From: an uncultured bacterium | GTDB lineage: Bacteria; Patescibacteriota; Minisyncoccia; Phycocordibacterales; UBA2100 | Reading direction: 5' to 3' | NCBI GenBank assembly: GCA_903858755.1 | Contig: CAIOKC010000032.1 | Span: 29,930 to 93,929 of the forward strand | DNA: 64,000 bases | Part shown: positions 3,096-64,000 of the stretch, piece after piece | How positions within the stretch are numbered: position 1 is the first letter of the stretch | Layout: the number at the start of each line of letters is the position of its first letter | The notes under the pieces: model-generated | What the model saw: only the letters and a program-made list of their open reading frames with translations | Databases searched by the model: none | What the model was told of the DNA's origin: nothing | Program-made: the position numbers and the translations under genes

Positions 3096-3118
3096 ATTTT
3101 AGCCTATGGTAGCAAACG

Positions 3119-3147: not shown

Positions 3148-3338
3148 GCATACGTGTCGGCGCGGGATCACTGCGCATCGGCGATCGCATCCTCGTAGCG
3201 AGGATCGATGATTGACCAGCCGCTGCCTGGAGAGCTTCTTCCCGGCTGAGAAACATCCTGGCTTTGCGAGCAAATTCTGCCATTATTTCCTCCTTTGGCT
3301 CCTCACTGCAGACTACCTGCAATCGGAGAATTACGCAA

Positions 3339-26539: not shown

Positions 26540-26575
26540 ATTAACAAATACGCACGGTCGGACGCATTTGTTAAT
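26540..26575. repeat. Palindromic repeat family member P1 (ATTAACAAA...CGGTCGGA...TTTGTTAAT)
   Basis: attaacaaatacgcacggtcggacgcatttgttaat, between tRNA-Arg and the PaaX-like gene. Confidence 0.7.
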
Positions 26576-26587
26576 ATACGAGGAACT

Positions 26588-27178
26588 ATGAACAACGGAG
26601 GCGGAGTCGAGCAGCGCGCGAGAAGCAAGATCTTTCGAGGAGCATTGAAGACCGCGATCCTTCAGGTCGCCGCCACGGTGGGGATACTCTCGCTTGCGGT
26701 CGTTGCTCCCAACACGCTCAAAGCAATCCCCCGCGAGACGCTGAATCTCGTTTTTAACAGACGAAAGAATTCCCGCAATGTGACCATATCGCGTCTTGTA
26801 AAAGAAGGTTTTCTTACTCGGGAACACCACAGAGGGACACGGGTGCTCCGAATCACGAGCAAGGGTCTGAGGTATCTTGAGCACGAGCGGCAAAAGCACG
26901 CGCTCAAAAGACCGGGGAAATGGGACAGGCACTGGCGTATCGTTGCTTTCGATATCGGAGAAAAGCGCAGGAAAACGCGCGACGCGCTTCGGCGGGAACT
27001 TCGCAGCGCTGGATTTTTCCGCTTGCAAGACAGCATGTGGGTCTACCCCTTCCCGTGCGAAGACTTTATTGCGCTGCTGAAAGCAGATCTCCGAGTGGGC
27101 AAGGATATCTTGTACGTCGTTGCGAGAGAGATCGAGAATGACGCGTTTCTTCAAAAACACTTCCGCCTGGTCGCATAG
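26588..27178 (+). CDS. PaaX-family transcriptional regulator-like protein
   Basis: 196 aa; C-terminal WDRHWRIVAFDIGEKRRKTRDALRRELRSAGFFRLQDSMWVYPFP matches the PaaX C-terminal domain pattern. Confidence 0.5.
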   Translation: MNNGGGVEQRARSKIFRGALKTAILQVAATVGILSLAVVAPNTLKAIPRETLNLVFNRRKNSRNVTISRLVKEGFLTREHHRGTRVLRITSKGLRYLEHERQKHALKRPGKWDRHWRIVAFDIGEKRRKTRDALRRELRSAGFFRLQDSMWVYPFPCEDFIALLKADLRVGKDILYVVAREIENDAFLQKHFRLVA

Positions 27179-27186
27179 AAGGTGGT

Positions 27187-27222
27187 ATTAACAAAAACGT
27201 CCGACCGGACGTTTTTGTTAAT
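27187..27222. repeat. Palindromic repeat family member P2
   Basis: attaacaaaaacgtccgaccggacgtttttgttaat; 16-bp arms, immediately after the PaaX-like stop. Confidence 0.7.
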
Positions 27223-33107: not shown

Positions 33108-33143
33108 ATTAACAAACTCGTACGGTCGTACGAGTTTGTTAAT
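33108..33143. repeat. Palindromic repeat family member P3
   Basis: attaacaaactcgtacggtcgtacgagtttgttaat (the arms extend to gcatattaac...gttaatatgc, 33104-33147); between the holA-like gene and polA. Confidence 0.7.
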
Positions 33144-42414: not shown

Positions 42415-44835
42415 ATGCGCCGGATACGAAAGTGGTGGCGGATGATGCCCGCATGGATGGAGCTTCCGCTCATCGCGATCGCGGTCGCGTTTTTTGTGCT
42501 GATAGGATTTTCCGTGCTCTGGGCGACCTTCGCGCCGCTCCCGTCGATCGACAATTTTGAAAATAGACAAGTCGCGCAGTCGACCAAAATCTACGACCGC
42601 ACCGGCAACGTCGTCCTCTACGATGTGCACGGCACCATGCGGAGGACCGCCATCCCGCTTGAAGAAATGTCGGAGTATCTGCGCGAGGCGACGATCGCCG
42701 TCGAAGACGACACGTTCTACACCAACGCCGGCTTCCGACCACAATCATTCGCGCGCGCTATCTGGACCAATCTCATGCAGGGAGACCTCCTGACGGGGCA
42801 GGGCGGCTCGACGATCACGCAGCAGGTCGTGAAGAATTCCCTCCTCACGCAGGAGAAGACCATTACGCGGAAAATAAAGGAGATCATCCTTGCACTGCGC
42901 CTCACCAGAGCGTACTCAAAAGACCAGATCCTCCAGACCTACCTCAATGAGACGCCGTACGGCGGTACCATCTACGGCGTGCAGGAGGCAAGCCAGTACT
43001 TCTTCGGCGTCGACGCGAAAGACGTGGATCTTGCGCAGGCGGCATATCTCGCGGCGCTTCCGCAGCGACCCACCTACTACTCGCCGTATGGGAACCACCG
43101 AGAAGCGCTCGATACGCGCAAGAATTTCGTGCTCTCGCGCATGAAGCAGCTCGGACTTATCAGCCAAGAAGAATACGATCAGGCGGCAAACGAGATCGTG
43201 CAATTCCGCGCGGAAGCCGAAGCGGGCATCAAAGCGCCGCACTTCGTCTTTTACATCCGCGAATACCTTGAGCAAAAGTACGGAGCGGACATTGTCAATC
43301 TCGAAGGACTCCACGTCATAACGACGCTCGACTACGAGCTCCAGAAAAAAGCGGAGGAGATCGTCGCGAAGCACGCGCCCGGCATGCAGCAGAATTTCGA
43401 CGCATCGAACGAAGGTCTCGTCGCGATCGACCCGAAATCCGGTCAGATACTCGCGATGGTCGGATCCCGCGGATACTTCGACGAGACTATCGACGGACAG
43501 GTAAACATCACAGTCGCGCACCGGCAGCCGGGATCGAGCTTCAAGCCGTTCGTCTACGCGGCGGCATTCGAGCAGGGCTACACCCCGGAGACGGTCGTCT
43601 TCGATCTCAAAACTCAGTTCTCCGCGTATTGTCAGCCCAACGACTTCTCAGAGACCGCGCCCTGCTATTCGCCGAACAACTTCGATGGGAAATTCCAGGG
43701 TCCCATCACCTTGCGCAACGCGCTCGCGCAGTCGGTCAACGTCCCCGCCGTCAAGACGCTCTACCTCACCGGCATCGACAACGCGCTGCGCGTCGCAAAA
43801 GAGCTTGGCATCACGACGCTCGGCAACGCAAACCAATACGGACTCACTCTCGTCCTTGGAGGCGGAGAAGTAACCCTCCTCGAAATGACGGGTGCGTACG
43901 CGGTCTTTGCAAACGAAGGAGTCAAAAATCCGCCGACTGGCATCCTGCGCGTGGAAGACAAGAAAGGAGTGGTGCTTGAAGAGTACGCCGAGCAGGGCTC
44001 CCGCGTTATCGACTCGCAGATCGCCCGCCTCATCAACGACGTCCTATCCGACAACGTCGCGCGCACGCCGGAATTCGGCGCGGATTCGCCGCTCCATTTC
44101 TCGGGCTACGACGTCGCGGACAAAACCGGCACCACCAACGACTACCGCGACGTGTGGATCATCGGGTACACGCCGTCGATCTCCGTCGGCGCGTGGGCGG
44201 GCAACAACGACAACACACCGATGCAGAAAAAGATCGCCGCCTTTATCATCGCGCCGATGTGGCACGAATTCATGCTCGCCGCACTTGAGAAATACTCCTC
44301 CCCTTCAGACGCGTTTGAGCCGCCCGCGCCCGAGACGGCTTCCCTTCCGCCCGTTCTTACCGGCAATTGGAATACCGACCCTTCGCAAGGGGTGCATGAG
44401 ATCCTCTACTGGGTCAACAAAGACGACCCCCGCAGCGGGCGACCGGTAGACACTGCAGGCGACGCGCAGTTTCCGCGCTGGGACTACGCGGTACAGCTGT
44501 GGGCAGGGCAAAATCCCGGCGCGATTGGCGCACCAATCGGCATCACATCGGGCGGCGTCGAGGCACCGCCAGCGGATTTTTCGATATCGTCTCCGCAATC
44601 CGACGTGCTCATTCCGTGGGGTGTCCTTGTGAGCGCAATCATCACTCCTCCGCAGTCCGGGAGCGTCAAATTCGTCACGTACTACCTAAACGGCGCGTTC
44701 GCGGGCGTCGCCTCGCAGGCACCCTATTCGCTATCCATAAGACCGGACATGCGTGGTCCGAATACGCTACGCGCCGTAATGACGAAACAAGACGGCACCA
44801 ACACCGAACGATCAGTCTCATTCGTCGTGCAGTAA
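42415..44835 (+). CDS. Class A penicillin-binding protein (PBP1A: glycosyltransferase + transpeptidase)
   Basis: GT51 motifs (EDDTFYTNAGF; GGSTITQQVVKN; RKIKE), then transpeptidase SxxK (PGSSFKPF), SxN and KTG (ADKTGTT). Confidence 0.9.
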   Translation: MRRIRKWWRMMPAWMELPLIAIAVAFFVLIGFSVLWATFAPLPSIDNFENRQVAQSTKIYDRTGNVVLYDVHGTMRRTAIPLEEMSEYLREATIAVEDDTFYTNAGFRPQSFARAIWTNLMQGDLLTGQGGSTITQQVVKNSLLTQEKTITRKIKEIILALRLTRAYSKDQILQTYLNETPYGGTIYGVQEASQYFFGVDAKDVDLAQAAYLAALPQRPTYYSPYGNHREALDTRKNFVLSRMKQLGLISQEEYDQAANEIVQFRAEAEAGIKAPHFVFYIREYLEQKYGADIVNLEGLHVITTLDYELQKKAEEIVAKHAPGMQQNFDASNEGLVAIDPKSGQILAMVGSRGYFDETIDGQVNITVAHRQPGSSFKPFVYAAAFEQGYTPETVVFDLKTQFSAYCQPNDFSETAPCYSPNNFDGKFQGPITLRNALAQSVNVPAVKTLYLTGIDNALRVAKELGITTLGNANQYGLTLVLGGGEVTLLEMTGAYAVFANEGVKNPPTGILRVEDKKGVVLEEYAEQGSRVIDSQIARLINDVLSDNVARTPEFGADSPLHFSGYDVADKTGTTNDYRDVWIIGYTPSISVGAWAGNNDNTPMQKKIAAFIIAPMWHEFMLAALEKYSSPSDAFEPPAPETASLPPVLTGNWNTDPSQGVHEILYWVNKDDPRSGRPVDTAGDAQFPRWDYAVQLWAGQNPGAIGAPIGITSGGVEAPPADFSISSPQSDVLIPWGVLVSAIITPPQSGSVKFVTYYLNGAFAGVASQAPYSLSIRPDMRGPNTLRAVMTKQDGTNTERSVSFVVQ

Positions 44836-44847
44836 ACCCTCCCCGCG

Positions 44848-45945
44848 CTACCGATTGAGCGGCATGACGAGGTAGATAAAATCGGGGTCGGAGACGCCCT
44901 TGACGATAAGCGGTCTTCCCGCTCCGGAAAAAGAGAGAACGATCGAATCCGATGCGACCGTAGGAAGACAATCCGCGAGGTACCCGATATGGAAATTGAT
45001 GTCGATGTCCTCGCCGGAGAGCGCGGCATCGATCGAGTCGGACATTTCTCCCACATCCGCGCTCCGCGCCGTTGCGGAACATACTTTCTTTTTCGGATAC
45101 ACATGAAGCCCGACATGCTGGTCGCCGCCTGAAAAGACGCGCGCTTTCTTCAACATCTCGGCGAAGTCGCTCTTGAGAAGGGTCGCTTCGGTCGTCGCTG
45201 TCTTCGGTATGATCTCCTTGTAATTCGGAAACACAGCGTCCACGACGCGCGAGACGTAGCGAGCGCCGCCGCCCTCAACGATCATCTGCGAGTCGTCCGC
45301 CGAAAGCCGCACCTCCTCGTCGCTCACGCGCTCGAGAATATGCACAAGCTCAAGGGCATGCTTCAGGGGTATAAGGAGCTCGACCTCGCCGCCGCCCGAG
45401 ACACCGACAATCCGCTTCTCAGCGAGACGAAAGGAATCAGTCGCTACACAAGTAATATGCTTACCGTCGATACTCACATACACGCTCCCCAATTCTGGTC
45501 TGATCATCGATGGAGACGCCGCGTAGACGACGCTTTGGATGCCGCGCATCAGATCTTCTCGACCGATCACGACACCTTTTTTCCCGTCCACGACCCCAAA
45601 CGATGGAAATTCGTCGTGCGGAACCGCTTTTATGAGCGTTTTCGTGCCTCGCGACTCGACAAGCAAATTACCCTCATCCGTCTGGAGCGTCACTGTATTT
45701 CCCGACAACGAACGAAGCGTCTGCGAGAAGATTCCAGCTGGTACAGCAACGATCCCCTTCTCCCCCACCTCACACTGGCTCACCACCTCCACACCGGCTT
45801 CGAGGTTGGTGGCTCGGACAGAGAGCTCTTTCCCCACATCAAGAAGCACGCACGAAAGTATAGGGAGTGTCTCTTTTTTCCCCGTGATCCTTTCTGCAAG
45901 AAGAATTGCGTTAAGGATTTTTTCTTTCGGGATTGTTATGCGCAT
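44848..45945 (-). CDS. dnaN: DNA polymerase III beta subunit (sliding clamp)
   Basis: 365 aa, MRITIPKEKILNAILLAERITGKKETLPILSCVLLDV...; three-domain clamp pattern. Confidence 0.9.
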   Translation of the reverse strand: MRITIPKEKILNAILLAERITGKKETLPILSCVLLDVGKELSVRATNLEAGVEVVSQCEVGEKGIVAVPAGIFSQTLRSLSGNTVTLQTDEGNLLVESRGTKTLIKAVPHDEFPSFGVVDGKKGVVIGREDLMRGIQSVVYAASPSMIRPELGSVYVSIDGKHITCVATDSFRLAEKRIVGVSGGGEVELLIPLKHALELVHILERVSDEEVRLSADDSQMIVEGGGARYVSRVVDAVFPNYKEIIPKTATTEATLLKSDFAEMLKKARVFSGGDQHVGLHVYPKKKVCSATARSADVGEMSDSIDAALSGEDIDINFHIGYLADCLPTVASDSIVLSFSGAGRPLIVKGVSDPDFIYLVMPLNR

Positions 45946-46181
45946 ATAGTTGAATTTATTTCTTTATAAAGACTATTACTACTATTAGTGCTGTGGAAAG
46001 TGGGGAGAACTGTATTTTGTGCTGATTGTAAGGCGTATTTTCTCTGTCTCATCGAGTGGAAAAGTCTCGTATAAACGAAAGCCGTCGTGGGGACATCCTC
46101 CTTCTTTGAGATGTTCGACTGCGTGTAGACGTCTTTTCCTCGCATATTCCCCGCCTTGTCCACAGTGTTGTGCATAGGTGT
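45946..46181. promoter_or_regulatory. Candidate oriC: AT-rich dnaA-dnaN intergenic region with DnaA-box-like 9-mers
   Basis: Markedly AT-rich (aatttatttctttataaagactattactactattagtg) in a ~60% GC genome. Contains ttgtccaca (46156-46164; consensus TTATCCACA with 1 mismatch), tgtggaaag (45993-46000) and cgtggatga. Confidence 0.5.
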
Positions 46182-47528
46182 TTATGCGTGGATGAGCGTA
46201 CGGATATGCTCCAGCTCTTGTTCGAGCGACGTGTTTGATTTCACCTCCTCCTTTATTTTTTCGCACGAATGGATGACGGTCGTGTGGTCGCGTCCGCCGA
46301 GTTTTTCCCCGATCGAGGGGTATGAGACGCCGAACTCCTCGCGGAGCATATACATGATGATTTGTCGCGGCTTCACCACCTCTTTCTTGCGCGTTTTTTC
46401 GTAGATGCTCTTTTCTGCCACTTCGTAGTACTGGGCGATGCGTCGTACTACTTCGTCGACCGATACGCCGCGGTTCGGCTTCACATTGTGCTTTATAAGC
46501 GCCCGAACGTCGGCGTGTGATATCGCCTTCCCTTTCAGCTGGGACTTGCAGACGATCATGTTGAGAACCCCCTCGAGTTCGCGGATGTTGCCACGGACGT
46601 TCTCGGCGATGTACTGGACGATGTCGTCGGGGATCGAAAATCCGTGGCTCTCGAGCTTTGCCCTGATGATCGCGATGCGTGACTCCACGTCGGGCTCTGG
46701 AATCTCCGCGATCATGCCCGACTGGAAGCGGCCTTTGAGGCGCTCTTCGAATCCCGGCAGCATCGCGGGGTGCTTGTCGGACGAAAAGACGATCTGCTTG
46801 TTGTTGTCGTGCATCGCGTTGAAGAGGTGGAAGAGTTCCTCCTGCGTTTTCTCGGTGTTTGCGATGAACTGGACGTCGTCCATGATAAGGACGTCGTAGG
46901 ATCGGTACTGGTCTTTGAAGTTGTTCGCCTTCCCTGCGCGTACGGAATTTATGTAGTCGATAGCGAAGCGCTCGCTTGTCACGTACAGCACTTTTTTGTT
47001 GGCGTGCGCCTTTTTGAAGTAGTTGCCCACGGCCTGTATGAGATGCGTCTTGCCGTGCCCGGTCGAACCGTAGATGAAGAGCGGATTGTATGAGAGACCG
47101 GGGCGCTCGATAATCGCTTTCGCCGCCGCGTGGGCGAGCTGATTGAACGGCCCCACGACGAATGTCTCGAACGTGTAGCGCGGGTTGAGGTTGTCGCGCT
47201 TGTCTATGTAGAGCGATTGGATGTCGATTGCCGTATTCTCGGGCGCCGCGGGGCGCGGCTGGCGCTTTTCAGCAGGCAGCGCGCTCCTGTGGACCGCGTA
47301 CTCGACAGTGCGTATGGAACTATCAAGTCCCCGGAGCGCTTTGAGGATGAGCTTGTGGTGTTTCTCCAAAAGCCACTCCTTCACAATCTTCGAAGGGACG
47401 GCGACCTGGACCGTCCCTCCATCGCGGCTTGCGATGTCTGTGTTGCGGAACCACGTCCGGAACGACGCTTCGGAGGTTCCAAGCTCGATCTGCACGAGCG
47501 CGTTCTGCCATAATTCACGATTGCTCAT
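46182..47528 (-). CDS. dnaA: Chromosomal replication initiator protein DnaA
   Basis: AAA+ Walker A (GSTGHGKTHLIQAVGN), Walker B (DVLIMDDVQF), sensor motifs and C-terminal DnaA-box-binding HTH. Start taken at MSNRELWQ, giving 448 aa. Confidence 0.9.
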   Translation of the reverse strand: MSNRELWQNALVQIELGTSEASFRTWFRNTDIASRDGGTVQVAVPSKIVKEWLLEKHHKLILKALRGLDSSIRTVEYAVHRSALPAEKRQPRPAAPENTAIDIQSLYIDKRDNLNPRYTFETFVVGPFNQLAHAAAKAIIERPGLSYNPLFIYGSTGHGKTHLIQAVGNYFKKAHANKKVLYVTSERFAIDYINSVRAGKANNFKDQYRSYDVLIMDDVQFIANTEKTQEELFHLFNAMHDNNKQIVFSSDKHPAMLPGFEERLKGRFQSGMIAEIPEPDVESRIAIIRAKLESHGFSIPDDIVQYIAENVRGNIRELEGVLNMIVCKSQLKGKAISHADVRALIKHNVKPNRGVSVDEVVRRIAQYYEVAEKSIYEKTRKKEVVKPRQIIMYMLREEFGVSYPSIGEKLGGRDHTTVIHSCEKIKEEVKSNTSLEQELEHIRTLIHA

Positions 47529-47719
47529 AGGGGTTGTGTGCCATGCGCGCAGCCCGGACATTATACGTGCCTCTTTGATCGACGGAAGAGTCCACGCACG
47601 GACGGGACGAGTGCATAACCTGTGGACGAGATGGGGACAGTGGGACATACCGGGCGGTGGCATCGGCGTCCCCGCTCTGCGGGGGTTGAAGTTATGGAAA
47701 GTTTTAGTATAGTGGCGCC

Positions 47720-47854
47720 ATGAGACGAACGTGGCAGCCAAAAAAGCGGAAACGCGCCCGAGCTCACGGATTTTTGGGTCGCTCCAAGACAAAGAGCGGG
47801 ACCAACCTTCTTCAGCGACGCCGAAGAAAGGGTCGTGCCCGACTTTCGGTCTAA
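47720..47854 (+). CDS. rpmH: 50S ribosomal protein L34
   Basis: [44 protein letters not shown] is a canonical L34. It is a short in-frame ORF not listed in the six-frame track; read directly from the sequence. Confidence 0.9.
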
Positions 47855-47858
47855 TCGA

Positions 47859-48188
47859 ATGCCCAGAGCCAAAAGACTTTCCCGCCGAGATTTTGAGATC
47901 ATCGGTCGTTCTCCCCGCAAGCGGTTCAACGGAGCGTATTTTTCCTTGACGATCGCCCCTTCCCCCAAGGGTGGGGGTGTCCAGGCAGCGTGCGTGGTCT
48001 CGAAGAAGGTCTCCCCGCGCGCAGTCGTCCGCAATCGAATAAAGCGGCGTTGCCGCGATATTGTCCGCTCACTGCTTACACGGCGCGCACTTCTCGGAGC
48101 GGTGCTTCTCACAGCGAAACGCGAGGCAGCGAGCGCATCGTATGAAGACATGCGATCCGACATCGAGCGTCTGCTTGCGCGACTCTAG
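47859..48188 (+). CDS. rnpA: Ribonuclease P protein component
   Basis: MPRAKRLSRRDFEIIGRSPRKRFNGAYFSL... RnpA pattern, directly after rpmH. Confidence 0.8.
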   Translation: MPRAKRLSRRDFEIIGRSPRKRFNGAYFSLTIAPSPKGGGVQAACVVSKKVSPRAVVRNRIKRRCRDIVRSLLTRRALLGAVLLTAKREAASASYEDMRSDIERLLARL

Positions 48189-48221
48189 CGATTATCGCGG
48201 CGTCGAGATACAATCCCGAGC

Positions 48222-48950
48222 ATGATATCCTCCGCTTTCCATGCGGCTATCTATGTGCCGCTCTACAACGGTCTTGTCTTTCTGGTGGGTCATATACCGA
48301 CTCACGATATGGGTCTCGCGGTCATCGCGCTCACCATCCTCGTCCGCATCGTCGTCTTCCCGCTCTCCCATCGCGCAGTTCGCTCGCAGATAGCGATGAA
48401 GAAGCTCGCGCCGGAAGTCGAGGAGCTGAAGAAGAAGTTCAAGAGCAACTCGCCGGAGCAGAGTGCGGCGATTTGGAAGCTCTATCGAGAACGCGGCATT
48501 CACCCGCTCGCGAGCCTCGGTCTTCTCCTCATACAGCTCCCCGTCCTTTTCGGGTTGTACTGGGTCTTTTTGCTCGGCGGGTTTCCCCAGATCGACTCAT
48601 CTCTCCTCTACTCGTTCGTATCCGCCCCGCCTTTTACCGACATGCACTTCCTGGGATTCGTCGATATGGGAGCGAAGCACAATATCGTCCTCGCGCTGTT
48701 GGTCGCCGCGAGCCAATTCGTCTACACGCGTCTTTCCATGGGTCCGCGGGGGCAGAGTGCAAACATCGAGGCGTCGCTTTCCGCCGATATGGCGAAGAGC
48801 TTCGACCTCCAAGCACGCTACCTCTTTCCGCTCATGTTTGCGGGTATTTCGTATTTCGTCGCGGCGGCCGCTCCCCTCTACTGGCTTACAGGCAATCTCT
48901 TCATGATCGGTCAGGAATATTTGGCGGGCAGGAGATTCCGTGATAGATAG
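48222..48950 (+). CDS. yidC: Membrane protein insertase YidC (short, Oxa1-like form)
   Basis: 242 aa, 5 TM, conserved ...AVIALTILVRIVVFPLSHRAVRSQIAMKKLAPEVEELKKKF... Confidence 0.85.
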   Translation: MISSAFHAAIYVPLYNGLVFLVGHIPTHDMGLAVIALTILVRIVVFPLSHRAVRSQIAMKKLAPEVEELKKKFKSNSPEQSAAIWKLYRERGIHPLASLGLLLIQLPVLFGLYWVFLLGGFPQIDSSLLYSFVSAPPFTDMHFLGFVDMGAKHNIVLALLVAASQFVYTRLSMGPRGQSANIEASLSADMAKSFDLQARYLFPLMFAGISYFVAAAAPLYWLTGNLFMIGQEYLAGRRFRDR

Positions 48951-48955
48951 AGTGG

Positions 48956-49426
48956 ATGGCAGCGGTTGAAACCATCCTCACGGAGCTTCTCGACGCGCTC
49001 GGGGTCTCGTACTCCGGTATTGAAAAGAGCGAGATTGCGGGTCAGGAGATATACGCGATCCGTACCGACGATGCGCGGACGCTCATCGGAGCGCACGGTG
49101 ATACGGTCCATGCGCTCGACATGCTCGCGAAGAAAATATACGAAAAACGGAATCCCGCCGAAGGAGGAGAGGGTGAACGAACGCCGATGTTTCTCGTCGA
49201 CGTCAACGACTACCGAAGCAAGCAGATAAAAGATTTGCAGACCAAGGCGCTCATGATGGCGGAGCGTTCGCGCTCGTTCCAGTACGATGTCGAGCTCTCC
49301 CCCATGAGCTCCTACGAGCGCCTCATTATTCACACCACATTGCAGGGTGCGCCGCACATCAAGACGGAATCTCAGGGAGAAGGTCGAAACAGGCGGGTCG
49401 TCATCAAATACTCTGCCGACGCTTAG
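48956..49426 (+). CDS. jag: Jag/KhpB RNA-binding protein (KH + R3H)
   Basis: 156 aa, KH-like N-terminal region and C-terminal R3H (ERLIIHTTLQGAPHIKTESQGEGRNRRVVI). Confidence 0.8.
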   Translation: MAAVETILTELLDALGVSYSGIEKSEIAGQEIYAIRTDDARTLIGAHGDTVHALDMLAKKIYEKRNPAEGGEGERTPMFLVDVNDYRSKQIKDLQTKALMMAERSRSFQYDVELSPMSSYERLIIHTTLQGAPHIKTESQGEGRNRRVVIKYSADA

Positions 49427-51768: not shown

Positions 51769-52200
51769 TTAAGGAAGCGCGCGACCTTCGTAAAACGGCG
51801 GGACGTACGAGTCGGCATCAAACAAAAGGTCGATCTCTGTCGGGGCTATGGTGAGTGCCGCAAACAATGCTGCGTCGTCGGGAGCGACGACGTCGACCGA
51901 GACGTCGATCGCAGAGCCGAGCGCGCCCGCGACAAGCTCGGCGGATGTCGCGCCTACTCCCTGCGCGAAGACCTTGCCGTTCACTCGCCACGTGAGCGTG
52001 CTGTCCGAGAGGTCGTAGGCACTACTTCGTGCTTCGAGGCGCACAGTGTCGTGCGGAGCCGGGTACGCGGGCGAAAGAGTGATGGAGACGGCATCGCCTA
52101 TGCCCGGAAGCGCGAATTGCGCGTACGCATGCGGAGCGAAGAGCAGGATCGCGCTTGCGAGTGCGCCGAGAGCGTACGCATGTGCCCGCGTCGCGCTCAT
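51769..52200 (-). CDS. Secreted hypothetical protein (signal peptide), upstream half of a possible split gene
   Basis: MSATRAHAYALGALASAILLFAPHAYAQ signal; ends ...PPFYEGRALP-TAA. Confidence 0.4.
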   Translation of the reverse strand: MSATRAHAYALGALASAILLFAPHAYAQFALPGIGDAVSITLSPAYPAPHDTVRLEARSSAYDLSDSTLTWRVNGKVFAQGVGATSAELVAGALGSAIDVSVDVVAPDDAALFAALTIAPTEIDLLFDADSYVPPFYEGRALP

Positions 52201-54140
52201 ACGGTCGGCATGCGCGGGATGCCGGATGCTTGCGGCGCCGTGTCTGCTCCCGGAGCGGCGTGCGCTCCGCCTGAGAGCGGCGCCGATTGTGCGGGCGCGG
52301 CGCTCGCAAGCGAAGATGGAGCGATGTCTTGCGCCTGCGCGAGCTCCTGCTTCGCTTTCTTGATAGCGAGAATCTGCGACGGGTCAGACGTGATGATCTG
52401 ATCCTCGGTGTACGAAGCAATGACCTTGATCGCGACGTGCTTCAATCCCGCGAAGAAAATACCCTCCCCCACGTCTGACTCGAGCAAGAGGTACTTTTCT
52501 TCGTCGGAGAGCTTGAATGTCTGCTGCACGAGATCGACGGAAGTCGGCGACTGGCGCAAAAGGAGCTGGATCGAGGAGTTGGTGATCATGGGGATGCCAT
52601 ACGGCGAATTGAGGAAGTCGGAGACGTCTTGCGTGATGGTCGAGATGCCGAGGTAGTATTTGCGACCGCGTTTTGCGATTGAGAACAAAAAGGAGGCAGT
52701 GTCTTGGCTTCGCATCATCCACCACGCCTCGTCGATCACGAGAAGACGCTTGCGGAGCTCTTTCCGCACGGTGTTCCAGATGTGGTGGGTGATGATGTAC
52801 ATCGCGACCGGCTTTAGGTCGTCCTCCATATCGCGCACGGAGAAGACGATAAGCTTCTTGTTCATGTCGACGTTGGTCGGTCGGTTCATGAATCCAGACC
52901 ACGTGCCCTTGGTGTATTTCGAGAGACGCTGCACGAGAGACTCGCTCCCCTCCATGCCGGAGAGCACGAGCTCGAAGTCGGAAAGGAGCGGCGGCTCCAC
53001 CTGCGCAAAGTTGGCATCCGCGGTGATGTCTTTGAGAGCGTACGTCTCGGTGATCGCCTTGTCGATGATCGCGTCCTCTTCGGGCGTGAGACCGCCGAGC
53101 ATGATGCGGAAGAGCCCCACGAGGGTAATGATGTTGTTGCGCAGTATGTCGGACGGATTCTCGTCTTCGCGCGGGATGGGGAGGTCGAACGGATTGATGT
53201 GGTTCTCCGACGAGAGCGATATGTTGAAGTAGCGCCCGCCCACCGTCTCGGCGAGGTACTCGTATTCGCGCTCGGGGTCGATCACGATGACTTCGGTGTC
53301 AAACATGAGCGAACGGAGGATTTCGAGTTTGGTCGTGTAGGATTTCCCCGCGCCAGATTTGGCGAAGGTCACCGAATTGTAGTTCTCGAGCGAAAAGCGG
53401 TCGAAGAGGATGAGGGAAGAGTTGTGGCGGTTGATGCCGTAGAGAATGCCGCGGTCGCTCGTAAGGTCGAACGAAATGAACGGGAATATGGAAGAGAGCG
53501 GCGCAGAGTTGAGTTTCGTGTGGACATTGAGCTCGTCGGTCGCAAGCGGCAGGACCGAGCGGAATCCCTGTTCCTGCTGGAAAAGCGCGGGACGAATGTA
53601 GACAAGGCGTGATTCGAGGATCGAGCGCACCTCGCTCTCGACCTTGTCGATCTCCTCGCGGGTGCTGCCGTAGATGGTCATGTAGAGACCCACTTCGAAT
53701 ATGCGCTCCTGCGCTTGCTGGAGAGAGTCGCGGAGCTGCTCGAGATCGGAGTAGGCGGTATCGAGCATCGGGTCGCGCACCATCCCCTTCGACTCGCGCA
53801 TGGATATCTGGCTCTGGACCTCCGCGACCTTCTTCTGAAATTTGCGCAGCATCTCGTTGGTGTCCATGGGGTGGACGAAGATCGAGATATCGATGACCTT
53901 ATCCATGTTGATGATGGGGGCGAACCACCCCGTGGTGAGGAAGCGCGGGTAGGAGATGACGAAGAACGTGCGGGCGATCTTTTCGCCCAGATCGAGTTCG
54001 CGCGAGCTGACGCGGAGCGCGTGCGGTGCGATAACGTCTTGCAAGTCAAGGACGCCGGACTTGTAGATTTCTTCCGGCAATACCGGGAGGACGTTCGGGC
54101 TCTCCGCGTCTTTTTTCTTGAACAGGTCGATAAGTGTCAT
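52197..54140 (-). CDS. VirB4/TrbE/CagE-family type IV secretion ATPase
   Basis: 647 aa; Walker A (VTFAKSGAGKSYTT), Walker B (LLVIDEAWWMM), conserved VirB4 C-terminal motifs. Confidence 0.8.
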   Translation of the reverse strand: MTLIDLFKKKDAESPNVLPVLPEEIYKSGVLDLQDVIAPHALRVSSRELDLGEKIARTFFVISYPRFLTTGWFAPIINMDKVIDISIFVHPMDTNEMLRKFQKKVAEVQSQISMRESKGMVRDPMLDTAYSDLEQLRDSLQQAQERIFEVGLYMTIYGSTREEIDKVESEVRSILESRLVYIRPALFQQEQGFRSVLPLATDELNVHTKLNSAPLSSIFPFISFDLTSDRGILYGINRHNSSLILFDRFSLENYNSVTFAKSGAGKSYTTKLEILRSLMFDTEVIVIDPEREYEYLAETVGGRYFNISLSSENHINPFDLPIPREDENPSDILRNNIITLVGLFRIMLGGLTPEEDAIIDKAITETYALKDITADANFAQVEPPLLSDFELVLSGMEGSESLVQRLSKYTKGTWSGFMNRPTNVDMNKKLIVFSVRDMEDDLKPVAMYIITHHIWNTVRKELRKRLLVIDEAWWMMRSQDTASFLFSIAKRGRKYYLGISTITQDVSDFLNSPYGIPMITNSSIQLLLRQSPTSVDLVQQTFKLSDEEKYLLLESDVGEGIFFAGLKHVAIKVIASYTEDQIITSDPSQILAIKKAKQELAQAQDIAPSSLASAAPAQSAPLSGGAHAAPGADTAPQASGIPRMPTV

Positions 54141-54145
54141 AGCGC

Positions 54146-54814
54146 CTATTGGGTAAGCCCCGCGATCGGCATGGGCTTCCCCTCTTCGCCCGGGTTGAAC
54201 ATTTTGTAGAGAAGCTCGATCGCCTCTTCGGTCCCCAGCTGCACGGTGCGCACGCCGGTCCGGACCAGACCCTGCTGCACGATCGAGATGCGCTGTTCAA
54301 GCTGCGTCGCCTGCTCCTCGAACGAGCGATTCTTCTCTTCGGTGTTTTGTTTCTTTTTTCCGAATGGAATAAGAGAGCCGATGCCGCTTTTTGAAACCGC
54401 AATGACCGGAGAATACGGCACGACGACAAAGAAGTTTTTCGTCATGATGTTTGCCGCTTCCGTAAAGCTCTTGATGAATTCGATGTACTCGCGGATCTGG
54501 ATGCGCATGAGGTCGTCGAGCTGATTCTTGTATGCTGCTTCGAGGGTCGCGACGTACGGTCGGATATCGAGCATGCGCGATTGCACGAATATCTGCGCGG
54601 AAAAATCGAGTGAGTTGAGGAAATTCTGGAATTGCACGATGAATGCGGTCTGTTCGTCTTCTGACTTGAGGGCGAAATTGATGGAGGAGGCGAGGAGAAT
54701 CGCGCGCAGGCTTCCGTCTTTGAGGACGACGATTCCGTCGCGCACCTCGGATACCGGCAGGAATTCCTGCGTGCTCTTCGCCGATGTGCGCGGATTTGCG
54801 GTCTGGGTCGGCAT
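54146..54814 (-). CDS. Hypothetical soluble protein of the T4SS-like operon
   Basis: 222 aa, no TM, no recognisable family; between the PrgI-like and VirB4 genes. Confidence 0.35.
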   Translation of the reverse strand: MPTQTANPRTSAKSTQEFLPVSEVRDGIVVLKDGSLRAILLASSINFALKSEDEQTAFIVQFQNFLNSLDFSAQIFVQSRMLDIRPYVATLEAAYKNQLDDLMRIQIREYIEFIKSFTEAANIMTKNFFVVVPYSPVIAVSKSGIGSLIPFGKKKQNTEEKNRSFEEQATQLEQRISIVQQGLVRTGVRTVQLGTEEAIELLYKMFNPGEEGKPMPIAGLTQ

Positions 54815-54816
54815 AA

Positions 54817-55320
54817 TTATTGGACGAGCGCCTGCCGGGCGGTCCGCACGGGAGCGACGAGATCCTCAGCCGTTCGTACGGCGTGGCGGTCCTCGTCGTT
54901 CGCGACCCCGGCAGAGATCCGCTCCTTGATGTCGAGACTCCACGCAAGCTCATGGAGCTTGCTTTCGGACAACTTCGGGACGTATACCTGGGCGGCGGAA
55001 TCCGGCTTGGCTGCGGCTTTCTTGGCAGACTGCTTTCGGGCGTTGTTCCAGAGGTAGAGCTTGCCGCGTATATAGAAGAAAAACGCGTTCTCAAGCCCGA
55101 GGATGAAGGGGCGTCCGTTGAATCGAAAGAACGCAAGCGCCGCCGCAAGACCTCCGACGACGAGGATGAGGGGTCCCGAGAGGTAGACGGGGAATATGCG
55201 CCATAGAATGTACGCCGCGCCGGCTCCCCCGCCGAGGTAGATGAACTGTTTGAAGGTCAGCGGTCCGAATATTTTATCCTCGACCTCTATGAACTGTGGT
55301 ACTTGGAACTGCATACGCAA
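54817..55320 (-). CDS. PrgI-family (VirB3-like) membrane protein
   Basis: VPQFIEVEDKIFGPLTFKQFIYLGGGAGAAYILW, then a second TM: the PrgI family hallmark. Confidence 0.6.
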   Translation of the reverse strand: MRMQFQVPQFIEVEDKIFGPLTFKQFIYLGGGAGAAYILWRIFPVYLSGPLILVVGGLAAALAFFRFNGRPFILGLENAFFFYIRGKLYLWNNARKQSAKKAAAKPDSAAQVYVPKLSESKLHELAWSLDIKERISAGVANDEDRHAVRTAEDLVAPVRTARQALVQ

Positions 55321-56073
55321 TTAAAGTATAGCAACGTTTTCCTGCTCATCCGGCGTACGTGCGTGGAATATGTCGAACAATGTGTCGACCGAGGCGATTT
55401 CGGCGGGAGGAATGGGCAGCGCATCTTTCGAAAGGAGTTTCGACTCTTGCCGCGTGCCGCTGCAGTAGTCGTTGAAGCTGGAATACTTGTATGTCTGTAT
55501 GAAGGTTGCCGCGCGCTCTTTCTCCGCGATGCCGTGTTCCCGCCAGCCGGGCTGCAAGAGGTCTAACGGATTCAGGTGTATATATGAGAACAGCCAGCGC
55601 ATGTACTCATCCGAATCTGCGTGCTTTGATCGGAACGGTCGAGCGAACAGCGGTCCGCTCCGCTGGTGTTTTGTGTTGAAGTACATCGAGTACGCGGTCA
55701 TGAGCTTGAGCATGAACTTTGATATGCCTCCCTCGGTGCTCTCACGCAGGGCAAGGTGAATATGATTGGGCATCAGCGCATACCCCATGATTGCCGTGAG
55801 ACGCCCCTCTTCCGGTTTGGACTCGCCTTCTAGCCACTTTATCAAGGGTTCCCCTTGATATTTCTTCAGAGTGTTCGCGACATGGACGGGCTTCTTGCTG
55901 TTGCACAGGAGGAGCAGGAGCATGAATCGGTCATAGTCGCGATTTTCTAGGAATATCGTCCTTTTTTCGACTCCGCGCGTGTACACGTGGTAGTTCTCGC
56001 CCTCTACAAAGGGAACCTTCCTCTCCATGAGGTCATCATAGCGTATTATCAAGGGGACCCCTTGATAATCCAC
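55321..56073 (-). CDS. IS200/RAYT-like HUH Y1 single-strand DNA nuclease/transposase-family protein
   Basis: YHVYTRGVEKRTIFLENRDYDRFMLLL; HUH motif LMPNHIHLAL; YSMYFNTKH; GPLFARPFRSKHADSDEYMRWLFSYIHLNPL, which aligns to TnpA-REP/RAYT (QPRFWEHAIRN...DYIYINPVKHG). No flanking intergenic DNA. Confidence 0.65.
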   Translation of the reverse strand: MDYQGVPLIIRYDDLMERKVPFVEGENYHVYTRGVEKRTIFLENRDYDRFMLLLLLCNSKKPVHVANTLKKYQGEPLIKWLEGESKPEEGRLTAIMGYALMPNHIHLALRESTEGGISKFMLKLMTAYSMYFNTKHQRSGPLFARPFRSKHADSDEYMRWLFSYIHLNPLDLLQPGWREHGIAEKERAATFIQTYKYSSFNDYCSGTRQESKLLSKDALPIPPAEIASVDTLFDIFHARTPDEQENVAIL

Positions 56074-56082
56074 AAGACGAGT

Positions 56083-56631
56083 TTACTGCGGCGATTCGCG
56101 GTACGGATCGTCGTGCACTGATGCGCGCGCCGCCGACGTCTCGCCCGATTTGTATCCTTCGGATACCGGCGCGCGCGCGACCTTTTCGGAAGGGGGCGCC
56201 GCCGGCGGCGTTGCGGGGGCGACGGGCGCTGGCTTCGCAGTATTCGAGAGTATCGCGCCCCGCGCCGCCTCGACGCTACTCACCTTCTCTGCTTGCGCCT
56301 CAGGGTGATCGAGCTCTCGTTCAAGCTCTTGCCGGATTGGTTCGAATACGAGTCTTGATATGTCCGCCGTGAGCGCTTTCGCGGTCTCCGTGTCGACTTT
56401 TACTTCACCCTCAACATTTTTTTGAAGGTCCTCGGAATTCTCAACGCCGAGAAGCGTAAGCATGACCTGGTTCTCCAGAGTCTCCCACTGGTCGAGGTGT
56501 AATTTGTGAACATTCGCAAGTTCTCGCAAGTGCTGCGCCACATCAGCAGACGTTATCGCGTCCTGCACGACTTTTGGCAGCAACTTGAAACGCTCTTGTA
56601 TCAACTGTCCGTACTCGTTGTCGTTGTCCAT
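56083..56631 (-). CDS. Hypothetical protein (T4SS-like operon)
   Basis: 182 aa, acidic N-terminal helical region, Pro/Ala-rich C-terminus. Confidence 0.35.
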   Translation of the reverse strand: MDNDNEYGQLIQERFKLLPKVVQDAITSADVAQHLRELANVHKLHLDQWETLENQVMLTLLGVENSEDLQKNVEGEVKVDTETAKALTADISRLVFEPIRQELERELDHPEAQAEKVSSVEAARGAILSNTAKPAPVAPATPPAAPPSEKVARAPVSEGYKSGETSAARASVHDDPYRESPQ

Positions 56632-56634
56632 ACA

Positions 56635-58893
56635 TTAGTGTCCGTGACCTCCGCCTCCGTGCTCATCGTGTCCTCCTCCTGAGGGTGGTGTCGAGGGTGT
56701 GGTCGGAGTTGCTGGTGCAGCTGCTCCATGTCCTCCTCCGCCAGTCTTATCTTTTAGGTAGTCGGCGATTTTCTTCGCCTCTTTTTTCTCGTGGTGCTCC
56801 CCAACTTCTTTTCGTGTGAGCTGTGCCAATCGGTCGTTATCTTTTGTGCTCAATCCTGTGGCGCGGGCGAGCAGATTCGTATACCGCTTGTGTGCGAGGT
56901 GTTCTCCGAGTTCCGCTTCGGATTTGTATTCTTCTTTCAGTTTGCTGCCCATCGCAAAGAACTGCTTGCCTCTCGCGATGGCATTCGCCTTTGCTTCGTC
57001 CTCGATGTTTTTAATAACAGTGTTTGCGCTGCTGAGTTTTTCAGTCGCGCTCTTGATGCGCTCCTCCTGCTTCCTCAAGTTCGTGTCGTGTTCTTTCACT
57101 TTCTTTTCTGCCGCGGTTTTTGCTGCGCTGTCGCCCGCCCGCTCGGCTTGATTGCGCTCAAACTCCGCTTGTTCGCGGGCCTTCCGCGTCGCGTCGTATT
57201 CTTTTTGTGCGGCGTTTTGGTCGGTCTTGTGAGTATCGGCGGCCTGCGTCGCTTCAGCGTGTCGTCCACCCAGCCCTGCGTTGTTCGAGAGCTCTTTTTT
57301 GATCGCCTGTGCGGTGATTTCACCTTGTTTTTTCCCATCCACGTGCAACATATCCGCTTTCTCCGCGAATTTTTCCGCGCGCCTCTTGAGAGAACCTTCG
57401 AAGCCTTTTACCTCTTTGCCTGCGAGTGTCTTGAGATCCATCCCTGCTGTTTTCGCGATGGCGCCTCCGAGGAGTGGAGTACGAGCGAGGTTCATGTCGG
57501 ATTTTGCTACACTTCTGAATCCTCTCGAACCGAACGAATACAGGGACTGACGAATACTGCCGTCCGGCGCATTTTGCGCGCGCCTCTTCAGTGCCTCACT
57601 TGCGGCAGAACTTCCGCGACCGATGGTCTGTCTGCCGAGTATTCCTGCAAAGCGTGAACCGAGCCCGAGTGCGACGGCAGGGGCAAGCGCCGCTATATTG
57701 AATCCAGAAATTTTCCCGGCGAAGCTGCTCGCGAGCCGGAAAGAGAAGAAGAGCGTGCCCACGCCGATGATGTAGAGGAGGATGGTGGTCCAGCTATCAC
57801 CCGAGAGCTGCTGCCGCGGGTCGCTCACGACGCTGCCGATCGGGGTCTGTGCGACCGCGCCTGCCGCACTCACGATCGCGAGCGATATCGAGAGGAGGAG
57901 CATGAGGAGCGGCGCGAAGATCGCGGCGTTGATGAGCGTCTTCCACCACTCCTTCCACCCGTAGGTGCTATTGGCGAGATTCGGGAGGAGGTATGTCGCA
58001 AACGCGAGCGCCGAAGTGAGCATGAGTACGATGAGGAGCACTCCGCGCGCGGCGATCAAGAAACATCCGTAGAGAATGACGCCAGCGGTCGCGAGAAGCA
58101 TCGCGCCTCCTACAAATCCGAAAAAGAACGCTTGATAGCCGCTCCCCGTCTCTTTGAGAACCTTCTTCGTCGCCTCCCCGGAGTCGTTCCAGATGCTCGT
58201 TATCTTCATCGGAGTGAGAAACGCCTGCGCGATGTCAAATGTCTCAGGCTGCGCCGCCATCTGCTTATAGATGGCGAACGCGGCGAAATTGGAGGCGTCG
58301 ATGATCATTTTCGTAAAGAGCAGGCTGAAATTGATCAAGACTGCGATGATGAGCACGTTTGCGATCAGCTTCTTCTGCCCGAACTCTTTCAGACCGAGGA
58401 TGATCGAGACCGCGATGAACGTGAAGATGCCGATGATGAGAATGTTGGAAAAATCTCTGAAGATGCTCCATGCCTCGGCGATCGCCGGAATGATGCGGAG
58501 TGTATCGAGCGAGTTCCTGAATCCGACAACGATGTGAGATACGAGATTGTCGAAGAGCGTCCCCGCAAGCCGTAGAATCATGGCGCCGAACGCGAGGAAC
58601 CACGAGCCGAGCCAGCTCAGGAAGACGTTGAAACATCCGTTGATGGAAAAGTAGAGTGGATTGATCGAGCACTCCGTGTCGTATGTGTTGACTTTGGGCT
58701 TTGCCGAAGCGGTGCTTGGCGCGGCGCTGCCTGCTCCTGTGGTCGCGGTCGTCTGCGCGAGCGCACTCGGCGCTTTGAGCGATATCGTGTCTGCAGTCAA
58801 CGAGAGCGGCAGCGCCGCGCCCGCCACGCACGTGCTCGCGAGGATGAGAGCGCTCACTAGGTACTGTACAGGTGCATGCGTGCGGCGGGTCAT
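56635..58893 (-). CDS. Polytopic membrane protein with long C-terminal coiled-coil/His-Gly tail; VirB6/TrbL-like candidate
   Basis: 752 aa: signal, about 8 TM helices, then a Lys/Glu-rich coiled coil and GGGGHG tail. Confidence 0.4.
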   Translation of the reverse strand: MTRRTHAPVQYLVSALILASTCVAGAALPLSLTADTISLKAPSALAQTTATTGAGSAAPSTASAKPKVNTYDTECSINPLYFSINGCFNVFLSWLGSWFLAFGAMILRLAGTLFDNLVSHIVVGFRNSLDTLRIIPAIAEAWSIFRDFSNILIIGIFTFIAVSIILGLKEFGQKKLIANVLIIAVLINFSLLFTKMIIDASNFAAFAIYKQMAAQPETFDIAQAFLTPMKITSIWNDSGEATKKVLKETGSGYQAFFFGFVGGAMLLATAGVILYGCFLIAARGVLLIVLMLTSALAFATYLLPNLANSTYGWKEWWKTLINAAIFAPLLMLLLSISLAIVSAAGAVAQTPIGSVVSDPRQQLSGDSWTTILLYIIGVGTLFFSFRLASSFAGKISGFNIAALAPAVALGLGSRFAGILGRQTIGRGSSAASEALKRRAQNAPDGSIRQSLYSFGSRGFRSVAKSDMNLARTPLLGGAIAKTAGMDLKTLAGKEVKGFEGSLKRRAEKFAEKADMLHVDGKKQGEITAQAIKKELSNNAGLGGRHAEATQAADTHKTDQNAAQKEYDATRKAREQAEFERNQAERAGDSAAKTAAEKKVKEHDTNLRKQEERIKSATEKLSSANTVIKNIEDEAKANAIARGKQFFAMGSKLKEEYKSEAELGEHLAHKRYTNLLARATGLSTKDNDRLAQLTRKEVGEHHEKKEAKKIADYLKDKTGGGGHGAAAPATPTTPSTPPSGGGHDEHGGGGHGH

Positions 58894-62953: not shown

Positions 62954-63277
62954 ATGCCGATACGCGCCATAGGATTTCTCGCCGGCATCGCGGCGCTCGC
63001 TGCTCCGCTGACCGCGCTCGCTTTTCCGTTCGGCGGTCAGGCGAGCATCGTCGTCCCCTGCTACAATCAGGCGATCTACGCCAATCTCGGTCCTCCGCGC
63101 GGCGGACCGTACGTATGGACTCCCTCGACGCGCACGTACCAATTCGGCGCGCCGACGCACGCAGGACAGTGGCTCTTGGGTCTCGCCGGCGCGCCGTACT
63201 TTTGCGTCGTTTCCAGACAGCCAGTCATCGTCTGGGCAGGTACGTATATAACAATGATGGGCTCAAGTCAGCAATAA
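62954..63277 (+). CDS. Small secreted protein
   Basis: MPIRAIGFLAGIAALAAPLTALAFP... signal peptide; about 108 aa. Confidence 0.35.
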   Translation: MPIRAIGFLAGIAALAAPLTALAFPFGGQASIVVPCYNQAIYANLGPPRGGPYVWTPSTRTYQFGAPTHAGQWLLGLAGAPYFCVVSRQPVIVWAGTYITMMGSSQQ

Positions 63278-64000
63278 TTCTTTCGCGAGGTGTTTCCACT
63301 TCTCAAGCTGTACGTCCTCCGCTCGCGCCTTCTCGTCGATATCGCATGCGACGAGTGCGGCAGCAGCTCTTTCTTTTCCGAACACAGAGGCGAGATTGTT
63401 CAGCAGGAACTTTCGTTTTGAGGCGAATCCCGCGCGGACAACCTTGAAAAAAGATTCTTCGTCAGTCGCCGAGGAGAACGGTCGAGACACGGCGTCGACG
63501 AGCAGAATCGCAGAGTCCACGGAAGGCGGAGGAGAAAAATTGCCTTTCGAGACTTTTGCCACGATGTTCGGCACACCAAACACTTTGACCGAAATAGAAA
63601 GGATGCTTTCTTTGCCGTCCCGCGCGAGGATTCGATCCGCCACTTCTTTTTGGATAAGCAGCGCAAGCGCACGCGGCTGATATGTTGCCGTAAGGAACAT
63701 TCTGATGATTTCACCGGTGATGTAGTACGGAATGTTTGCGGCGACAACGTACTGTTTCATACCAAGTGTTTCGGGAGAAACATCGCGCACGTCGCCGGAG
63801 ACAACGACCAGCTTGCCCGAAGCGACCTCGCGCGCAAATGCTATGCGCAGGCGCTCGACGAGCTTCGTGTCTTTTTCGACCGCGACGACACGCGCGTCTG
63901 TCGCGAGAAGCTCTTTCGTAAGCGCGCCCGCACCGGGACCTATCTCAAGGATTGTCTCGCCGGGGCGTACGGCGATTGCCCCTGTAAGCGCGCGCGCCGC
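63263..64000 (-). CDS. rsmA: 16S rRNA (adenine1518/1519-N6)-dimethyltransferase RsmA/KsgA (N-terminus runs past window end)
   Basis: ...GETILEIGPGAGALTKELLATDARVVAVEKD... (SAM motif), then NIPYYITGEII and the C-terminal domain. Confidence 0.8.
   Translation of the reverse strand, partial: AARALTGAIAVRPGETILEIGPGAGALTKELLATDARVVAVEKDTKLVERLRIAFAREVASGKLVVVSGDVRDVSPETLGMKQYVVAANIPYYITGEIIRMFLTATYQPRALALLIQKEVADRILARDGKESILSISVKVFGVPNIVAKVSKGNFSPPPSVDSAILLVDAVSRPFSSATDEESFFKVVRAGFASKRKFLLNNLASVFGKERAAAALVACDIDEKARAEDVQLEKWKHLAKELLLT

Follow-up and report, generated by a model that had tools for sequence, protein, structure and literature searches.

The class 2 TnpA_Y1 proteins, a group of HUH nucleases, carry their catalytic tyrosine in a Y---NP motif (PMC6006769, Table 1). 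Subclass 2.1 (Bertels group 1, "TIRYT") is reported to lack hairpins resembling REPs (repetitive extragenic palindromes) and to have a DnaA_C-like helix-turn-helix (HTH) tail, while in subclass 2.4 (Bertels group 4) REPs occur in frame within tnpA_REP, in the part that separates the HuH motif from the Y motif; atypical REPs without the GT[AG]G sequence are known from TnpA_Y1 subclasses 2.6 and 3 (PMC6006769). Most origin-proximal type IV secretion system (T4SS) clusters of Patescibacteria have been described as lacking a relaxase, leaving open that very different relaxases are present (PMC12102498). Y1 genes are unmentioned in that paper, as are Y1_Tnp, IS200 and transposases in its supplements, and it thus neither supports nor excludes an association between Y1 genes and the T4SS. 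Here, we describe a Y1 gene embedded in such a cluster, in a stretch of 64,000 nucleotides (nt) of contig CAIOKC010000032.1 from an uncultured patescibacterium (hereafter, the window). The initial annotation of this DNA had presented the gene as a possibly domesticated Y1 HUH nuclease of the RAYT (REP-associated tyrosine transposase)/IS200 type, and as a candidate relaxase substitute for the T4SS. The family assignment was right by profile, fold and motifs; the proposed role in secretion was not borne out. We conclude, with a probability of about 0.75, that the gene belongs to an intact class 2 TnpA_Y1 (RAYT-like), REPtron-like module, which is an accessory passenger in an insertion hot spot and not a T4SS component.

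The Y1 protein and its active site

The protein scored 25.8 bits against the Pfam family Y1_Tnp, slightly over the gathering score of 23. The Y1_Tnp profile covers RAYTs as well as other Y1 transposases. A PDB sequence search with the single protein gave no match, and a PDB search with a Y1 profile gave just weak matches to ISDra2 near the HUH motif, so that a fold search was needed. An AF2 model based on a 24-sequence alignment had a predicted local distance difference test (pLDDT) score of 87 and a predicted template modeling (pTM) score of 0.86. The top PDB match to this model in Foldseek was E. coli TnpA_REP in complex with a REP hairpin (4er8_A; E-value 2.4e-5, probability 1.00); the ISDra2 and IS608 transposases ranked next. 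The closest Y1 relative of the window protein is ~60% identical to it.

The active-site motifs (Table 1) were assigned from this model and from alignment A1, which consists of the window protein and 23 homologues (24 sequences). Residues N88-H89-I90-H91 fit the consensus [ND]-H-u-H and are placed on a strand comprising residues 89–96. The class 2 motif Y---NP is present as Y149-I-H-L-N153-P154, with the HuH motif upstream of it by about 55–60 residues, as class 2 requires. As class 2 proteins carry Y---NP as their Y motif, the catalytic tyrosine is most likely Y149, which lies within helix 140–152, and not a tyrosine of YSMYFN. The initial annotation had placed it in YSMYFNTKH, which in the model forms the helix directly after the HUH strand; of the motifs that it had listed, YHVYTRG, LMPNHIHLAL (HUH) and YIHLNPL are present. 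It had also named mutation of the HUH or tyrosine residues as grounds for refuting its proposal; H89, H91 and Y149 are invariant in A1.

The motifs NH[IFL]H and Y[IV]HLNP, the SS tail motif and a size of close to 235 residues match class 2, with a likeness to subclass 2.1. An IS200-type protein would have Y---Q and DH[VI]H motifs and a core of ~150 residues without extra domains, whereas the window protein has Y---NP and NHIH and, at 235 residues, possesses an additional linker as well as a helical tail.

The gene occupies most of an uninterrupted minus-strand open reading frame (ORF) at 55321–56073. All 23 aligned homologues begin with M-[EQDLS]-R-K at the position of the ATG at 56028, and the public gene call P0001 (235 residues, 100% identical to the window protein) has the same start. 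The start is therefore placed at this ATG and not at the GTG at 56073 that had initially given a 250-residue protein. With the corrected start, the intergenic distance to the upstream gene (stop at 56083) grows from the 9 bp originally stated to 54 nt. At the other end, the PrgI ATG at 55314 sits 6 nt after the Y1 stop (TAA at 55321–55323, counted in the gene coordinates), rather than 1 bp past it.

Cognate hairpins in the window and across the family

Two copies of one hairpin are associated with the window gene. The 5' copy, ATTATCAAGGGG-N-CCCCTTGATAAT, is a perfect 25-nt palindrome with 12-bp arms and a 1-nt loop, located 17 nt upstream of the ATG. The intragenic copy differs from it by one mismatch and encodes Y57-Q-G-E-P-L-I63, in a surface linker where the model has its lowest confidence (pLDDT 59–66 for residues 51–70). 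These were the only two matches to the hairpin pattern in the entire 64 kb, and there were no matches in 100 shuffles. Their presence contradicts the earlier statement that the gene has no flanking subterminal palindromes. Repeat and pattern searches found no 3' hairpin after the Y1 stop. An Rfam scan of 54000–57000 found no credible RNA family, and a simple promoter and terminator scan gave nothing exceeding the level expected from shuffled sequence, its one entry being the intragenic hairpin, which it labeled terminator-like on the opposite strand.

For comparison with the rest of the family, 80 loci were fetched from species-representative genomes, and 81 were analyzed, with the window and L001 counted in. 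Nearly all are from Patescibacteria (Paceibacterota, Kaiserbacteria, Nomurabacteria, Saccharibacteria and others). Perfect palindromes with a stem of at least 8 bp were counted in 50-nt bins relative to the Y1 ATG. There were three peaks, with 64 palindromes at −100 to 0, 19 at +150 to +200 and 46 at +650 to +800, while the other bins around Y1 held 0–7 each. The last peak falls right past the stop, as the median gene length is 681 nt. Since the family hairpins were picked for palindromy, a count of covarying pairs would be circular, and the positional enrichment is the unbiased evidence. The 5' hairpin of the window corresponds in position and type to the 64 upstream palindromes, which are typically found 30–60 nt before the ATG. 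The hairpins are locus-specific, with one sequence per locus and stems that vary among loci around an apical core, AAGG-N5-CCTT. In 35 of 38 loci, the upstream hairpin and the downstream one are cognate, with the same orientation in 18 and inverted in 17; in 13 of 21 loci, the internal hairpin has an inverted orientation compared with the closest upstream copy. The idea that the hairpins are terminators only was rejected, since one sequence is found in three copies per locus, one of them inside the ORF.

Hairpins that keep a fixed distance from each gene end would also be expected of an autonomous IS200-like insertion sequence (IS), that is, a hairpin-gene-hairpin unit moving via a single-stranded circle, of which the window copy would be a one-ended and immobile member that has lost its right end. 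Consistent with this idea, all four T4SS-embedded copies checked (the window, L003, L004 and L005) are without a 3' hairpin, some close relatives carry the module and others do not, one junction site holds two Y1 lineages, and L001, a member of the window lineage, is found in another context. However, no near-identical multicopy set was found in the window or in related loci. There is one Y1 match in the window and one Y1 per locus elsewhere; the second copies in L029, L034, L054 and L070 are just 30–36% identical to the window protein, and Y1 protein clusters span 1–2 contigs each. Low copy number with divergent paralogues, a class 2 trait, is thus what is seen in the loci sampled. The motifs are likewise those of class 2 (Y---NP and NHuH) and not Y---Q and DH[VI]H. 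Furthermore, solo hairpins occur, which is a REP-like trait, and several synteny groups keep the gene in position while Y1 identity falls to 35–55%. An autonomous IS is therefore an unlikely explanation.

The solo copies were found in two ways. Beyond the vicinity of the gene, 11 further cognate hairpins were present in ~700 kb from 53 loci, where the number estimated by chance is far below 1. Metagenome contigs were also scanned for the exact hairpin of the window, and Y1 genes on them were called with a profile hidden Markov model (HMM) of the family. This yielded 61 stretches with 68 sites: 14 at or in a Y1 gene, 28 solo (at least 900 nt without any Y1 on either side by the family HMM) and 26 too near a contig end to judge. 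Solo hairpins are either intergenic, often between A and T runs, or in frame within large ORFs. Copies apparently in frame were seen in ORFs of 155–823 residues (L084/L099, L087/L096/L122, L117/L124, L101/L109 and L094/L111) and resemble REP insertions into unrelated genes. Two contigs have identical hairpin pairs 841 nt apart, a Y1-like spacing (L097 at 403 and 1244; L140 at 435 and 1276). No Y1 was found between the paired hairpins, with the family HMM included in the search, and they may represent a decayed or replaced cassette. Overall, the dispersal of the hairpin is REP-like, at low copy number.

The internal hairpins also show a codon register. In 17 of 20 cases, the hairpin at the common linker site (~+165) is centered on codon position 2; because this codon phase is fixed, the peptide [QKE]-G-x-[PTAS]-[LF], in which G59 is invariant, can be read as the translated hairpin core. 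We tentatively raise the possibility that the in-frame hairpin is an ancestral, selected part of the Patescibacteria Y1 family and not a tolerated REP insertion, a reading that we consider less likely than not. If it is ancestral, the nuclease carries its own recognition hairpin at a fixed codon phase in a surface linker, [QKE]-G-x-[PTAS]-[LF] being AAGG-N5-CCTT translated, and the internal copy would evolve in concert with the flanking ones; it could be a protected master copy or a self-regulatory site. The family is a clean case of a DNA hairpin apparently dictating a conserved protein motif, and is useful for studying the co-evolution of nuclease and target. A fixed, concertedly evolving intragenic hairpin is modestly interesting, and is the one feature of the system that possibly deserves more attention.

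The cognate hairpin was also seen at further intragenic sites, in L038 and L043 (+267/+273) and in L053 and L055 (+448/+467). At L046 (10001–10611), tblastn split the Y1 match into two segments that overlap, and the internal hairpin lies out of frame, with a stop. The gene may be a frameshifted pseudogene, yet it retains all three hairpins, together with a solo copy 8.6 kb upstream.

Three other palindromes in the window, of 34–36 nt, had initially been suggested as an alternative substrate, with Y1 as the enzyme mobilizing the TTAACAAA palindromes. This is unlikely, as Y1 has its own, different cognate hairpin, and we rejected these palindromes as Y1 targets: they show no sequence relation to the Y1 hairpin, and two of them enclose an ORF for a PaaX_M/Cas2-like protein. 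They are located at 26541–26574, 27188–27221 and 33109–33142; their ends, ATTAACAAA...TTTGTTAAT, are conserved, while the inner stems differ yet still pair. The first two flank the 196-residue PaaX_M/Cas2-like ORF (26588–27178, plus strand), and the third is upstream of polA (33161–35578, minus strand). They may serve as operators or represent a separate hairpin family.

The junction between the T4SS genes

The cluster that contains the Y1 gene is a chromosomal, origin-proximal Patescibacteria T4SS, with ksgA, jag, yidC, dnaA and dnaN as neighbors. The Y1 gene separates a gene for a 182-residue protein from PrgI, and, as first annotated, PrgI and then a split VirB4 follow directly downstream (Pfam and NCBIfam). 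An HUH nuclease adjoining PrgI and VirB4 would be an attractive DNA-processing enzyme for the system, nicking a hairpin-containing origin of transfer (oriT) and piloting single-stranded DNA through the VirB4/PrgI machine, all the more so as Patescibacteria T4SS are mostly without a MOB relaxase and divergent relaxases have been left open (PMC12102498).

The occupancy of the junction does not bear this out. Operons were reached from the T4SS side via PrgI homologues (L144–L149), and from the Y1 side through the GTDB loci. PrgI is 91% identical to that of the window in L148, 79% in L149, 74% in L144, 71% in L145, 70% in L147 and 69% in L146. No Y1 was found at the junction in L148, L149, L144 and L145, where the two genes are just 42–117 nt apart, and these operons are otherwise intact. 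L148 is 86% identical to the window DNA across PrgI-VirB4, and its homology to the window stops near 56095 and resumes at 55319 (blastn), which defines the Y1 module as a 775-nt indel. L146 (Kaiserbacteria, MFKT01000029) has an unrelated gene at the same site, encoding a 116-residue 23S_rRNA_IVP/bAvd-like four-helix bundle (3093–3443); thus, the junction accepts different small accessory genes. L147 does have a Y1 there, which is 40–44% identical to the window lineage and 60% identical to L017, and its cognate hairpin is different (TACAAGGTTCAACCTTGTA, in two upstream copies).

Seen from the Y1 side, T4SS genes are absent near Y1 in 75 of the 81 GTDB loci. The order 182-residue gene, Y1, PrgI was found among these loci in L003, L004 and L005 only; the P0005 contig has the gene order of the window. 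L028 has a T4SS cluster 6 kb from its Y1, with no Y1 between the 182-residue gene and PrgI, and the Y1 of L001, which belongs to the window lineage (56–65% identity), is in a non-T4SS context. The initial annotation had stated that its proposal would fall if related clusters lacked the gene and homologues were found with flanking hairpins in variable locations, and this is the pattern observed. Other properties of the protein and gene point the same way. HUH relaxases have the reverse motif order, with the catalytic tyrosine N-terminal to HUH. In the window protein, HUH (89–91) precedes the tyrosine (Y149), as in transposases and Rep proteins. No relaxase family appeared in the Pfam scan, which returned Y1_Tnp alone at E-values up to 0.01 (MOBscan was not run), and the gene has its own REPtron-like hairpins, while PrgI has a separate −10-like box. 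We therefore consider a relaxase function, with co-transcription of Y1 with PrgI and VirB4, to be most improbable, even though Y1 is found at the junction in about half of the clade's sampled operons. The junction between the 182-residue gene and PrgI is an insertion hot spot, and the Y1 gene represents a transposase-like module, whether selfish or domesticated, and not the DNA-processing enzyme that the T4SS is missing. This removes a tempting relaxase candidate for the Patescibacteria T4SS.

The box upstream of PrgI, TGCTATACT, overlaps the final four sense codons of the Y1 gene (GTT GCT ATA CTT), ending 1 nt before the TAA. Of the nine operons read besides the window, eight (L003, L004, L005, L144, L145, L147, L148 and L149), whether filled or empty, have a TGnTATAMT box 7–10 nt ahead of the PrgI ATG, as does the window; none was seen upstream of PrgI in L146. 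If the box is read as a promoter, the junction becomes a boundary at which one transcription unit gives way to the next, and Y1 does not have to be transcribed together with PrgI-VirB4. Judged by sequence, the junction probably is such a boundary, and the position of the box suggests a near-leaderless PrgI-VirB4 transcript and a T4SS cluster split into at least two units.

The same box raises the question of whether the module has been co-opted locally, its insertion just upstream of the PrgI −10 box altering PrgI-VirB4 transcription through read-through or hairpin-dependent termination. Co-option would account for the retention of two Y1 lineages at one junction, and it fits with the repeated occupation of the site and with Y1 ORFs of both lineages ending in or directly after the conserved TGnTATAMT box (window, L003 and L147). 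However, the box and the operon are kept at empty sites too, and the unrelated gene in L146 is more in keeping with a permissive hot spot than with Y1 being selected for. We regard co-option as improbable.

The favored interpretation is thus a passenger module that is present or absent between two probable transcription units of the T4SS cluster. If it works like E. coli TnpA_REP and IS608 TnpA, the enzyme would bind its cognate hairpin on single-stranded DNA, then cut and rejoin beside it via a 5'-phosphotyrosine on Y149, with H89 and H91 holding the metal during this chemistry. In the layout of the family, the palindrome of the locus stands before the ATG and again after the stop, often with a third, in-frame copy, and with few solo copies elsewhere; the window module has a 5' and an intragenic hairpin, no 3' one, and an ORF that runs into the PrgI −10-like box. 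Y1 also persists at one site in several clades, namely the T4SS group and the group of L008, L029, L034, L049, L065 and L071 (Y1 identity 32–54%). This persistence, with losses, rare relocations and possibly allelic exchange, fits descriptions of RAYTs.

Several observations weigh against a RAYT-like passenger. The protein scored only 30.8 bits against the NCBIfam RayT equivalog REP_Tyr_transpos, whose cut-off is 80, so that it is a relative of E. coli RayT and not an equivalog. Canonical REPs have a 5' guide tetranucleotide, GT[AG]G, at the hairpin foot, which was present in just one of 109 flanking hairpins. No further copy of the cognate hairpin was found in the other 62 kb of the window, and the dispersed copies are few and do not establish a true REP population. 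At the junction itself, about half of the clade's sampled operons carry a Y1 (the window, L003, L004, L005, L147 and the P0005 contig), and these Y1s belong to two lineages, so that they may have a local function. Finally, the TGnTATAAT box was only inferred to be an extended −10 promoter, from its sequence.

Table 1. Location of the Y1 module, its motifs and hairpins, and the adjacent T4SS genes in the window.
Feature	Position	Strand	Basis
Y1 HUH nuclease gene, 235 residues, class 2 TnpA_Y1/RAYT-like	55321..56028	−	ORF list; start from A1 and P0001
HUH motif H89-I90-H91, codons CAT ATT CAC	55756..55764	−	Sequence; H89 and H91 invariant in A1
Y motif YIHLNP, with Y149 as inferred catalytic Tyr	55567..55584	−	Y149 and P154 invariant, N153 nearly invariant in A1
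5' cognate hairpin	56045..56069	.	Repeat search; pattern search against shuffles
Intragenic cognate hairpin, 9-bp arms, 3-nt loop	55840..55860	.	Repeat and pattern search
Y1 module as indel relative to L148	55320..56094	−	~775 nt in window, ~117 nt in L148
Extended −10-like box TGCTATACT	55325..55333	−	Sequence; 10 nt upstream of PrgI ATG
Upstream neighbor, 182-residue protein, function unknown; last gene of the upstream T4SS-associated unit	56083..56631	−	
Downstream neighbor PrgI (VirB3-like), 165 residues	54817..55314	−	Pfam PrgI; public call P0121
Split VirB4 after PrgI	54146-54814 and 52197-54140	−	Pfam TraG P-loop; NCBIfam VirB4 N-terminal matches

On one side, the T4SS-like cluster has PBP1, dnaN, dnaA, yidC and jag (42415–49426) as its neighbors, and on the other ksgA (63263–63790). 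Its genes point to the dnaA/yidC divergence point, and would be head-on to replication if the origin is located there. VirB4 (52197–54814) consists of a 222-residue TraC-like N-terminal ORF and a 647-residue ATPase ORF, a split that is common to all related operons read.

Comparison with known systems

In the literature searched, we found no description of RAYT- or REPtron-like systems in Patescibacteria; the present family suggests that such systems reach the reduced genomes of this group, in a low-copy form. The described system to which it is closest is the REPtron of E. coli, with TnpA_REP (RAYT, YafM; 4ER8) as its nuclease. The two proteins share the Y1 HUH fold, E. coli TnpA_REP being the best structural match, and the order of HUH followed by a C-terminal helix with Y---NP, and both are encoded by a single-copy gene with flanking cognate palindromes and solo copies elsewhere. 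The REPtron arrangement of flanking palindromes is found across the family, while the window has upstream and intragenic copies only. Unlike E. coli TnpA_REP, the window protein falls under the NCBIfam equivalog cut-off and, at 235 residues, has the extra linker and helical tail, and the Patescibacteria hairpins are without the GT[AG]G foot and number few rather than hundreds.

Within class 2, the family is most like subclass 2.1 (PMC6006769) in its NHuH and Y[IV]HLNP motifs, its median length of ~238 residues and its SS tail motif, a likeness judged by motifs only and not by the HMMs of Quentin et al. 2018. In contrast to subclass 2.1, it has flanking and intragenic hairpins, and no HTH was detected by Pfam. 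Subclass 2.4 similarly has a cognate REP inside the nuclease gene, in a peripheral loop and with the frame unbroken. However, the main intragenic site of the Patescibacteria family is before HuH, at a fixed position and codon phase, and its hairpin is part of a conserved peptide motif with an invariant glycine (G59).

The IS200/IS605 transposases (IS608 and ISDra2) appear to share the fold and, by analogy, the chemistry, and have subterminal hairpins at both gene ends, as do most members of the present family. They differ from it in that the family has Y---NP and NHuH motifs, a longer protein, no identical multicopy elements and no tnpB, and in that its stems are perfect palindromes whose upstream and downstream orientations are evenly split (18 same, 17 inverted). 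With MOB relaxases, the window protein would share the HUH metal site and tyrosine chemistry on single-stranded DNA at a hairpin; it differs from them in its opposite motif order, in the lack of a relaxase profile match (Pfam) and in having no conserved linkage to T4SS genes. The family thus adds to the known class 2 TnpA_Y1/RAYT-like systems, and is REPtron-like but low-copy.

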